A stretch of 64,000 nucleotides of DNA from Escherichia phage vB_EcoM-BECP11. The translations under genes were made by a program, and so were the position numbers. The first letter of the stretch is position 1. Every line of letters starts with the position of its first letter. Positions 30,490 through 31,510 of the stretch are shown piece after piece. The stretch lies in the sequence record MW286157.1; one strand, given 5' to 3'. The notes beneath the pieces are model-generated. The model ran no database searches. It was not told the DNA's origin and saw nothing but the letters and a program-made list of their open reading frames with translations.

Positions 30490-30562
30490 TGGGAATTAGC
30501 CAAGTTGGTAAGGCACTGGATTTTGATTCCAGGATGCAAAGGTTCAAGTCCTTTATTCCCAG
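30490..30562 (+). tRNA. tRNA-Gln (UUG)
   Basis: Hand-folded cloverleaf: acceptor TGGGAAT/ATTCCCA, anticodon loop TTTTGAT, T-loop TTCAAGT; no encoded CCA. Confidence 0.85.
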
Positions 30563-30563
30563 C

Positions 30564-30650
30564 GCGAGAATGGTCAAATTGGTAAAGGCACAGCACTTAA
30601 AATGCTGCGGAATGATTTCCTTGTGGGTTCGAGTCCCACTTCTCGCACCA
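30564..30650 (+). tRNA. tRNA-Leu (UAA)
   Basis: Acceptor GCGAGAA/TTCTCGC, anticodon loop CTTAAAA, long variable arm, encoded CCA. Confidence 0.85.
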
Positions 30651-30655
30651 AATTT

Positions 30656-30729
30656 GCGGATATCGTATAATGGCATTACCTCAGACTTCCAATCTGATGA
30701 TGTGAGTTCGATTCTCATTATCCGCTCCA
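30656..30729 (+). tRNA. tRNA-Gly (UCC)
   Basis: Acceptor GCGGATA/TATCCGC, anticodon loop CTTCCAA, T-loop TTCGATT, CCA. Confidence 0.85.
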
Positions 30730-30739
30730 ATTTAATTTA

Positions 30740-30813
30740 CTCCGTGTAGCTCAGTTTGGTAGAGCGCCTGATTTGGGATCAGGAGGTCCAAGGTTCAAAT
30801 CCTTGTATGGAGA
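30740..30813 (+). tRNA. tRNA-Pro (UGG)
   Basis: Anticodon arm CCTGA-TTTGGGA-TCAGG, T-arm CAAGG-TTCAAAT-CCTTG, acceptor with two G-U pairs. Confidence 0.8.
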
Positions 30814-30815
30814 CT

Positions 30816-30905
30816 GGAGGCGTGGCAGAGTGGTTTAATGCACCGGTCTTGAAAACCGGCAGTCGCTCCGGCGACTCATAGGTTCGAATCCTATCGCCTC
30901 CGCCA
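30816..30905 (+). tRNA. tRNA-Ser (UGA)
   Basis: Acceptor GGAGGCG/CGCCTCC, anticodon loop CTTGAAA, long variable arm, T-loop TTCGAAT, CCA. Confidence 0.85.
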
Positions 30906-30910
30906 GTTTT

Positions 30911-30986
30911 GCTGATTTAGCTCAGTAGGTAGAGCACCTCACTTGTAATGAGGATGTCGGCGGTTCGATTCCGTCAATCAGCACCA
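30911..30986 (+). tRNA. tRNA-Thr (UGU)
   Basis: Acceptor GCTGATT/AATCAGC, anticodon arm CCTCA-CTTGTAA-TGAGG, CCA. Confidence 0.85.
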
Positions 30987-30987
30987 A

Positions 30988-31062
30988 GGCCCTGTAGCTG
31001 GAAGGTTCAAGCAAGCGACTCATAATCGCCAGATGGTGGTTCAATTCCACCCAGGGCCACCA
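30988..31062 (+). tRNA. tRNA with CAU anticodon (Ile2 type as in T4, formally could be Met)
   Basis: Acceptor GGCCCTG/CAGGGCC, anticodon loop CTCATAA, T-arm GGTGG-TTCAATT-CCACC, CCA. Confidence 0.75.
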
Positions 31063-31074
31063 AATTATGAATTA

Positions 31075-31161
31075 GGGGAGTTATCCCGTAGAGGTAGCGG
31101 TGTGGACTGTAAATTCATTGTCATTGCGACTCGGGTGGTTCGACTCCATCACTCCCCACCA
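31075..31161 (+). tRNA. tRNA-Tyr (GUA), type II
   Basis: Perfect acceptor GGGGAGT/ACTCCCC, anticodon loop CTGTAAA with U33 and A37, long variable arm with 3 bp stem, CCA. Confidence 0.7.
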
Positions 31162-31165
31162 ATTT

Positions 31166-31240
31166 GGATGTGTAGCTCAATGGCAGAGCGATCGCCTGTT
31201 AAGCGATTGGTTATAGGTTCGAATCCTATCACGTCCGCCA
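31166..31240 (+). tRNA. tRNA-Asn (GUU)
   Basis: D-arm GCTC/GAGC, anticodon arm ATCGC-CTGTTAA-GCGAT, T-arm ATAGG-TTCGAAT-CCTAT, CCA. Confidence 0.8.
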
Positions 31241-31354
31241 AATTTGTGACAACTGTCACATTAATATCTACTTGACGCGATTATAGGGGTTGAACTGATC
31301 ACTCTTCTCTTAATTTCGTGTGAAGACATCATGATTGTTGGAGTAGGTATTAAT

Positions 31355-31430
31355 GTGGCCGTAGTTCAGTTGGTAGAACTCGAGATTGTGATTCTCGTAG
31401 TCATGGGTTCGACTCCCATCGGTCACCCCA
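31355..31430 (+). tRNA. tRNA-His (GUG) with extra 5' G(-1)
   Basis: 8 bp acceptor including G-1 opposite C73, anticodon arm CGAGA-TTGTGAT-TCTCG, T-loop TTCGACT, CCA. Confidence 0.8.
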
Positions 31431-31434
31431 ATTA

Positions 31435-31510
31435 CGGGGCATAGCTCAGAAGGAAGAGCAAGGACCTTCTAAGTCCTGGGTCGTAGGTTCGATCCCTACT
31501 GCCTCGACCA
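31435..31510 (+). tRNA. tRNA-Arg (UCU)
   Basis: D-arm GCTC/GAGC, anticodon arm AGGAC-CTTCTAA-GTCCT, T-loop TTCGATC, CCA. Confidence 0.85.

Follow-up and report, generated by a model that had tools for sequence, protein, structure and literature searches.

The genome of Escherichia phage vB_EcoM-BECP11, a Tequatrovirus, was analysed over a stretch of 64,000 nucleotides (nt) of the sequence record MW286157.1 (hereafter the window, with positions counted from its first letter). This stretch contains a cluster of eleven transfer RNA (tRNA) genes, among them three that T4 does not have, namely those for Tyr, Asn and His. The cluster is the common, already annotated segB-free (T2-type) allele of the T-even tRNA operon, and it is T4 that has the minority allele, invaded by the homing endonuclease segB. 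As to function, our analysis makes it rather probable that in this segB-free operon tRNA-Tyr and tRNA-Asn serve both as tRNA supply and as a buffer against tRNA nucleases, and that tRNA-His is a separate module.

The segB-free allele of the T-even tRNA operon

ARAGORN found exactly eleven tRNA genes in the window, all on the + strand and arranged head to tail between 30490 and 31510, and no tRNA gene elsewhere in the 64 kb. These are the same genes, with the same positions and anticodons, that an earlier reading of the sequence alone (the original prediction) had folded by hand, and ten of the eleven score 59-75 bits with the Rfam tRNA model RF00005. In eight of them (Gln, Leu, Gly, Pro, Ser, Thr, Ile-CAU and Arg) the original prediction recognized the canonical T4 set. 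This holds for the anticodons, but two of the eight are different alleles, the CAU tRNA being 65% identical to the T4 tRNA-Ile and tRNA-Arg(UCU) 51% identical to the T4 tRNA-Arg.

The CAU tRNA is labelled 'Met' by ARAGORN and in most GenBank records. The label Ile of the original prediction is nevertheless to be preferred to that of ARAGORN, because the best E. coli matches of this gene (81.6% identity over the full length for the nearest relative) are annotated as tRNA-Ile. In addition, the use of AUA in the window open reading frames (ORFs) is 5.5 times that in E. coli, and the GGCCC start of the acceptor stem and the anticodon stem-loop are presumably features in common with ileX. Judging from its sequence, the CAU tRNA is probably a tRNA-Ile2 (lysidine, reading AUA).

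In T4, the order of the genes is Gln, Leu, Gly, Pro, Ser, Thr, Ile, segB, Arg, rnaD, rnaC, and the operon lies, as it does in the window, between trna.2 and e.8, with rnaD and rnaC downstream. The homology to T4, as detected by blastn, amounts to 93.8% identity over positions 29920-31007 (about 94% for the genes from Gln to Thr); it ends at 31007, inside the CAU tRNA gene, and restarts at 31879. T4 differs from the window in having segB in place of Tyr, Asn, a 93-nt leader and His, and in having no ORF between Arg and rnaD. No ORF of segB size is present in the corresponding interval of the window, according to the ORF list. The original prediction had assumed that T4 carries two small stable RNAs in the slot occupied here by the genes from Tyr to His; this proved to be wrong, because T4 has segB there and its rnaD and rnaC come after Arg. 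A homology of the interval 31075-31430 to rnaC and rnaD is ruled out by blastn, which places both of them at 31879-32136.

The Tyr-Asn DNA is 100% identical to that of T2. For T2L, the genes for tRNA-Met(CAU), Tyr, Asn and Arg, together with ORFs, were described in 2008 at the place where T4 has segB (Brok-Volchanskaya et al., PMC2330249). The window shares with T2/T2L the CAU tRNA, Tyr, Asn, the non-T4 allele of Arg, a downstream ORF of 116 amino acids (aa) and the lack of segB. It differs from T2 by the 93-nt leader and tRNA-His added between Asn and Arg, and by keeping tRNA-Thr, at the position of which the T2 record has an ORF. In the same study, the preferred SegB cleavage site was located inside the tRNA-Asn gene of T2L, and about 1250 bp were replaced in a T4 x T2L cross (PMC2330249). 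The tRNA-Asn gene of the window is identical to the T2 gene, the T2L counterpart of which is the one where that site was mapped.

Among 50,697 phage records, the Tyr-Asn pair, counted at a coverage of at least 80%, was found in at least 395, the spacer with tRNA-His in 334 (from at least four genera), the whole Tyr-Asn-spacer-His stretch in 186, and T4 segB in 126. The whole stretch is already annotated in GenBank. The modules differ from phage to phage: T2 has Tyr-Asn, T6 has Tyr and then segB, and sutha has Tyr-Asn and the leader without His. Homing-endonuclease traffic has given the locus a mosaic structure. Because T4 is the segB-occupied variant, calling the cluster 'expanded', as was done originally, expresses a comparison with T4 and not an unusual gain.

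Two further observations on related loci may be mentioned. In some close relatives, as in the records of phages ACG-C40 (L001, 1887-2495) and Pu-Krd-SF1 (L014, 676-1284), the gene directly upstream of tRNA-Leu encodes an HNH endonuclease, and the annotation lists no tRNA-Gln; the operon would thus have received another homing-endonuclease insertion, its second. In the window, tRNA-Gln is present and a gene of this kind is absent. The Jiaodavirus Klebsiella phage K65PH164 (L008, 294-1940) has tRNAs for Tyr, Lys, Asn, Asp, Met, Gln, His, Ser, Ile, Trp, Gly and Pro, a set that includes all four tRNAs with GUN anticodons (Tyr, Asn, His and Asp) as well as tRNA-Lys, which the window lacks.

Probable supply and defence roles of tRNA-Tyr and tRNA-Asn

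Amino-acid and codon demand was compared between 79 window ORFs (17,966 codons) and 34 E. coli ORFs (13,748 codons). Relative to E. coli, the most enriched amino acids in the window are Tyr (1.81-fold), Asn (1.64-fold) and Lys (1.61-fold), and His (0.63-fold) is tied for the lowest place. In the half of the window that matches the T4 late structural genes, Tyr (1.79-fold) is first, Asn (1.75-fold) second and His (0.48-fold) last of the 20 amino acids. Codon and amino-acid supply predicts exactly Tyr and Asn, and speaks against His. The original prediction had stated that the three extra tRNAs are carried 'not merely for codon adaptation', and had proposed a codon comparison as a check. The comparison does not bear the statement out, since Tyr and Asn are the two most over-used amino acids and His is the most under-used one. 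The eight T4-type tRNAs mostly read codons used 1.75-5.9 times more than in E. coli, the enriched codons being AGA/AGG, AUA, UCA and related Ser codons, UUA/UUG, ACA and related Thr codons, and GGA/GGG; the Gln and Pro tRNAs have codon sets below host use (0.79-fold and 0.78-fold, respectively).

For tRNA-Tyr, Rfam gives only a sub-threshold match to tRNA-Sec (29.9 bits), a weak score which fits the long variable arm and a mismatch in the D stem, as read by hand. The tRNA-Tyr call stands despite this score, because tRNAscan-SE scores the gene at 39.1 in the GenBank record of phage ACG-C40, and because the gene is identical to that of T2 and only one base different from the experimentally tested tRNA-Tyr of T6. 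It is also 80% identical to the T5 tRNA-Tyr, with identical variable and T arms, and its type is common to several phage families, matches with 86-97% identity being found in rV5-like, T5-like and Felix O1-like phages.

By sequence comparison with T2, T6 and T5, this tRNA-Tyr belongs to the phage type of which the T6 and T5 members counter the nuclease PtuAB. In the Septu defence system, PtuAB cuts the variable arm of tRNA-Tyr, and T6 escapes by amplifying its tRNA-Tyr gene; overexpression of the T6 tRNA-Tyr overcomes Septu, and T6 becomes sensitive when its tRNA region is deleted. T4, which lacks a tRNA-Tyr, is unable to escape, and T2 is resistant (PMC13096335). Likewise, the tRNA-Tyr of T5, of a Klebsiella phage and even of E. 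coli rescues from retron-Eco7 when placed under a strong phage promoter (PMC11555353), and in a screen of a coliphage tRNA library against PtuAB, tRNA-Tyr alone was enriched (PMC12445682). The likeness to T6 has a limit in the genetic context: the T6 tRNA-Tyr gene adjoins segB, which amplifies tRNA-Tyr under selection, and this escape route is unavailable at the segB-free locus of the window.

A different system is relevant to tRNA-Asn. The targets of AriB, the nuclease of PARIS, are tRNA-Lys, tRNA-Thr and, with weaker cleavage, tRNA-Asn, each cut between positions 40 and 41 beside a UAAU motif; in tRNA-Asn(GUU) the cut is at U36AAUC|C41, and changing U39 to A in tRNA-Lys abolishes cleavage (PMC12409363). 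The anticodon stem reads U36-A-A-G39-C40-G41 in the tRNA-Asn of the window, U36-A-A-U39-C40-C41 in that of the host and U-A-A-G-U-U in that of T5, so that U39 is replaced by G in both phage tRNAs. The G39 breaking the UAAU motif suggests that the tRNA-Asn of the window may be resistant to AriB. The T5 tRNAs for Lys, Thr and Asn together neutralise PARIS (PMC12409363). The window differs from T5 in that its tRNA-Asn is just 63% identical to the T5 tRNA-Asn and in that it encodes no tRNA-Lys, the main target of AriB. For the latter reason, the window set could not neutralise PARIS alone, and a full rescue is unlikely even with a resistant tRNA-Asn.

tRNA-His and its structured leader

The original prediction ascribed to tRNA-His the diagnostic G-1. 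The base before the gene is instead T (31354), and the acceptor stem has 7 bp: G31355 is position 1 and pairs with C72. The gene further shows U8-A9, a D stem GUUC/GAAC, C73 and an encoded CCA. By comparison, hisR of E. coli (G-GUGGCUA) has an extra G and an 8-bp stem. Among the features that define bacterial tRNA-His, the GUG anticodon and C73 are thus present in the window gene, and the encoded G-1/C73 pair is absent. G-1 is the main identity element recognized by histidyl-tRNA synthetase (HisRS). Its loss cuts the efficiency of E. coli HisRS more than 100-fold (PMC3064791).

The T at -1 is kept in the homologues from Karamvirus, Jiaodavirus and Gelderlandvirus and, independently, in the tRNA-His of T5 (L012:6128-6204, - strand). 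In the T5 record AY587007.1, the annotated tRNA coordinates are 68 nt off the genes found by ARAGORN, and tRNA-His is unannotated. A small survey of IMG/VR for tRNA-His genes with GUG, C73 and CCA gave 23 distinct sequences in clusters of at least four tRNAs, with G at -1 in 18/23, T in 4/23 and A in 1/23. The exceptions with T are four sequence types, the T4-like one of the window, that of T5, and two more (L100 and L070). As 18 of the 23 keep G-1, phages normally keep this base, and the window gene belongs to an exceptional minority. In the literature searched, no paper on a phage tRNA-His without G-1 was found.

For the rest, tRNA-His scores 65 bits with Rfam and 73 with tRNAscan, and it is 86-98% conserved across genera. 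The spacer and tRNA-His are common to T4-like phages of Klebsiella, Enterobacter and Salmonella, where they come after tRNA-Gln. To the best of our knowledge, there is no defence that targets tRNA-His specifically. It has been reported only as a minor product of AriB cleavage (PMC12409363). The simplest guess is that the gene provides a weakly charged spare tRNA-His.

The spacer between tRNA-Asn and tRNA-His is 114 nt long and contains a 7-bp hairpin (31246-31261) followed by the 93-nt leader (31262-31354), which has a fold z-score of -3.7, a 12-bp closing helix and three inner helices. Nine distinct homologues of the leader were aligned, from Tequatrovirus (with and without tRNA-His), Karamvirus, Jiaodavirus, Gelderlandvirus, a 167-kb IMG/VR contig and W70. 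Homologues of the window element lie at L007:1210-1302, L008:1206-1298, L009:1210-1301, L011:1522-1614, L138:599-690 (on the - strand), L139:598-689 and L140:303-391. In this alignment 97.3% of the pair cells are standard, and 8 of the 25 pairs show compensatory changes. The observed value was reached by none of 500 shuffles on four of five measures and by 2/500 on the fifth, and sliding the partners by 1-3 columns gave at most 3 compensatory pairs. In W70, a member of the Vequintavirinae, the leader precedes tRNA-Gln, and its closing helix is different in sequence and still complementary. The element therefore ranges over four Tevenvirinae genera and one Vequintavirinae phage.

A covariance model of the leader finds one copy in the window (111 bits) and none in the T4, T2 and T5 loci or in about 35 IMG/VR tRNA-cluster loci, and a degenerate pattern matched only 5 IMG/VR contigs. 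Rfam gives no match to the spacer at E ≤1 when 6 kb are searched, and a scan of 126 nt gave only chance-level matches (E >2, far below the gathering scores). The leader is unannotated in the GenBank records compared. On the + strand of the 114-nt spacer, no promoter was found by a sigma-70 consensus scan, and no T4 late or MotA-type motif by eye. A 37-aa ORF (31331-31444), which runs from the spacer through tRNA-His and appears as a coding sequence in one Klebsiella phage record, was rejected as spurious, its protein sequence not being kept in W70.

With its 3' half, GUCACAU, the hairpin is complementary to AUGUGGC (31353-31359), that is, to positions -2 to +5 of tRNA-His. When leader and tRNA-His are folded together, the closing helix is predicted to gain about 7 pairs into this region, forming a duplex of about 19-20 bp which would compete with the acceptor stem of tRNA-His. 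The pairing of the hairpin with tRNA-His is also possible in the Karamvirus and Gelderlandvirus copies. The leader may be a site of RNA processing or a stable RNA comparable to rnaC and rnaD, or have some other role.

Operon layout and competing explanations

The features of the operon are listed in Table 1. The hairpin at its downstream end is probably the end of the transcription unit of the tRNAs and small RNAs. Pfam gave no match for the ORF between tRNA-Arg and the rnaD homologue or for other neighbouring ORFs, and PHROG only families of unknown function. At this position, where T4 has only 1 nt, an ORF equal in length occurs in T2 and ACG-C40.

Table 1. Features of the tRNA operon in the window of Escherichia phage vB_EcoM-BECP11
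Feature	Position	Strand	Evidence
tRNA-Gln(UUG)	30490-30563	+	ARAGORN; Rfam
tRNA-Leu(UAA)	30564-30650	+	ARAGORN; Rfam
tRNA-Gly(UCC)	30656-30729	+	ARAGORN; Rfam
tRNA-Pro(UGG)	30740-30814	+	ARAGORN; Rfam
tRNA-Ser(UGA)	30816-30905	+	ARAGORN; Rfam
tRNA-Thr(UGU)	30911-30986	+	ARAGORN; Rfam
CAU tRNA, probably tRNA-Ile2	30988-31062	+	ARAGORN ('Met'); E. coli tRNA-Ile match
tRNA-Tyr(GUA), 87 nt, long variable arm	31075-31161	+	ARAGORN; T2/T6 comparison
tRNA-Asn(GUU)	31166-31240	+	ARAGORN; Rfam 74.1 bits
Perfect 7-bp hairpin TGTGACA-AC-TGTCACA, directly 3' of tRNA-Asn	31246-31261	+	Sequence; folds
93-nt structured RNA in the spacer upstream of tRNA-His	31262-31354	+	Fold, covariation, covariance model
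tRNA-His(GUG), 76 nt	31355-31430	+	ARAGORN; Rfam 65.1 bits
tRNA-Arg(UCU)	31435-31510	+	ARAGORN; Rfam 63.9 bits
116-aa ORF, function unassigned, between tRNA-Arg and rnaD homologue	31529-31879	+	phrog_3355, E 9.5e-55
T4 rnaD homologue (species 2 stable RNA)	31879-31991	+	Local alignment, 97 matches over 113 nt; blastn
T4 rnaC homologue (species 1 stable RNA)	31998-32136	+	136/139 matches
Terminator-like hairpin, 10 bp (7 G-C), then T run	32187-32210	+	Consensus scan

In the explanation that we favour, the eleven tRNAs, the small ORF, rnaD, rnaC and the terminator-like hairpin would form one operon, whose RNAs are presumably cut from long precursors by host RNases. The tRNA-Tyr and tRNA-Asn would add supply for the two amino acids that are most above host use, and this extra supply may keep translation going when phage-triggered nucleases destroy host tRNAs. 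For tRNA-Tyr, the nuclease would be the PtuAB of Septu and retron-Eco7, with its cut in the variable arm, against which rescue by dosage has been shown for the T6 and T5 genes. For tRNA-Asn, protection against AriB would come from the broken UAAU motif, the rescue having been shown for the T5 tRNA-Asn. The tRNA-His would be a separate module that travels with its structured leader and serves the least-demanded amino acid, without G-1.

Several points weigh against this explanation. The evidence on defence comes from the tRNAs of T6 and T5, that is, from phages other than the present one. Septu cleaves the T6 tRNA-Tyr too, and a single wild-type copy protects only intermediately (PMC13096335); since the phage tRNA-Tyr is also cut, the effect is one of dosage. 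The argument about AriB concerns one substituted base in tRNA-Asn, a tRNA which AriB cuts weakly. On the side of demand, the E. coli amino-acid reference is a 50-kb sample containing the 34 ORFs, and Lys is as enriched as Asn (1.61-fold) and yet has no tRNA, so that demand alone does not predict the tRNA set. Finally, neither demand nor any known defence directed against it accounts for tRNA-His.

It is conceivable that the extra tRNAs only fit the tRNA pool to the amino-acid and codon use of the A+T-rich phage, or replace a host pool that is not renewed, with no defence role at all. The enrichment of Tyr and Asn and the 1.75-5.9-fold use of the codons read by the T4-type tRNAs speak for such a pure supply function. 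We nonetheless regard it as unlikely, since the spacer and tRNA-His recur in 334 records and at least four genera although His is the least demanded amino acid, Lys has no tRNA, the codon sets read by the Gln and Pro tRNAs are less frequent than in the host, and a defence phenotype has been published for the nearly identical T6 tRNA-Tyr.

The opposite emphasis was that of the original prediction, which saw in the three genes a means of surviving tRNA-cleaving host defences. In this general form the idea is upheld by the published experiments on T6 tRNA-Tyr and Septu, on T5 tRNA-Tyr and retron-Eco7 and on T5 tRNA-Asn and PARIS. Its particular version, in which Tyr, Asn and His were gathered as the GUN (queuosine) set so that the phage copies let translation survive a colicin-E5-type anticodon nuclease, is not supported and appears very improbable. 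ARAGORN did confirm that all three extra tRNAs have GUN anticodons, and for three random extras among the 12 amino acids outside the T4 set this outcome has p = 4/220 = 0.018, by a simple combinatorial estimate (no isotype frequencies were found in the preprint checked). This test is, however, post hoc, and once Tyr and Asn are given by demand, His or Asp would come out as the third extra with a probability of about 0.2 (2/10). The usage values themselves (Tyr and Asn over-used 1.8-fold and 1.6-1.75-fold, His under-used at 0.48-0.63-fold) also speak against the colicin-E5 version. Colicin E5 is a secreted bacteriocin, an interbacterial toxin. We know of no evidence of E5 acting as a phage-triggered defence, and no phage-triggered E5-type defence was found in the literature searched.

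The substrate requirements of E5 point in the same direction. E5 cleaves the Tyr, His, Asn and Asp tRNAs with QUN anticodons; its determinant is Y33-G34-U35-N36, minihelices with this motif are fully susceptible even when unmodified, and the smallest substrate accepted is GpUp (PMC1635277). The anticodon loops of the three phage tRNAs (CUGUAAA, CUGUUAA and UUGUGAU) have 7 nt, are the same as those of the host and keep U33-G34-U35-N36. With host-identical loops containing YGUN, the phage tRNAs are E5 targets and not resistant variants, and they would be cut like the host ones. The tRNA-Asp, the fourth GUN member, is missing from the 64-kb window, so that the set of E5 substrates is incomplete. 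The role of phage tRNAs against host tRNA nucleases, with colicin E5 named among the candidate selective agents, was proposed by van den Berg et al. in 2023, but according to the same authors phages generally avoid tRNAs that are targeted in the anticodon itself (PMC10264068). The nucleases known to attack tRNA-Tyr and tRNA-Asn do not cut in the anticodon; their sites are in the variable arm or, in the anticodon stem, between positions 40 and 41. Jiaodavirus phages do hold all four GUN tRNAs, but together with those for Lys, Met, Gln, Ser, Ile, Trp, Gly and Pro, and the three extra genes are independent modules that differ among phages in distribution and in neighbours.

For tRNA-His, the explanation as a spare tRNA must be weighed against the possibility that it is not an ordinary decoding tRNA, but a decoy or sponge for a nuclease or for HisRS, a tRNA matured by a route other than RNase P, or a decaying gene. 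This possibility is suggested by the T at -1 combined with C73 and the consequent loss of HisRS efficiency (PMC3064791), by the exceptional character of this loss among phage tRNA-His genes, by the lowest demand of all 20 amino acids, and by the covarying leader, whose closing helix can reach positions -2 to +5. We are doubtful about it because tRNA-His is otherwise a good tRNA, as its Rfam and tRNAscan scores indicate, and high expression could offset poor charging. Its conservation across genera counters decay, and the leader is not obligately linked to it, being found without His in sutha and before tRNA-Gln in W70. That the leader and tRNA-His form together a new kind of functional unit, with the tRNA matured or charged in a non-standard way or acting as a poorly chargeable decoy against a nuclease or sensor directed at tRNA-His, likewise seems improbable on present analysis.

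In conclusion, the cluster itself changes nothing and represents, for a textbook locus, the majority allele; the map is corrected in that a homing endonuclease has invaded the T4 allele and the small RNAs sit downstream. Demand accounts for Tyr and Asn, not for His. The anti-defence role of phage tRNAs is an active, published field, and part of the proof exists for a tRNA-Tyr almost identical to the present one. Any remaining interest attaches to the tRNA-His lacking G-1, with its charging in E. coli, and to the role of its conserved, structured leader. If the two did form a new functional unit, the leader would be a previously undescribed stable or regulatory phage RNA, and the loss of G-1, which T5 shares, would be deliberate.

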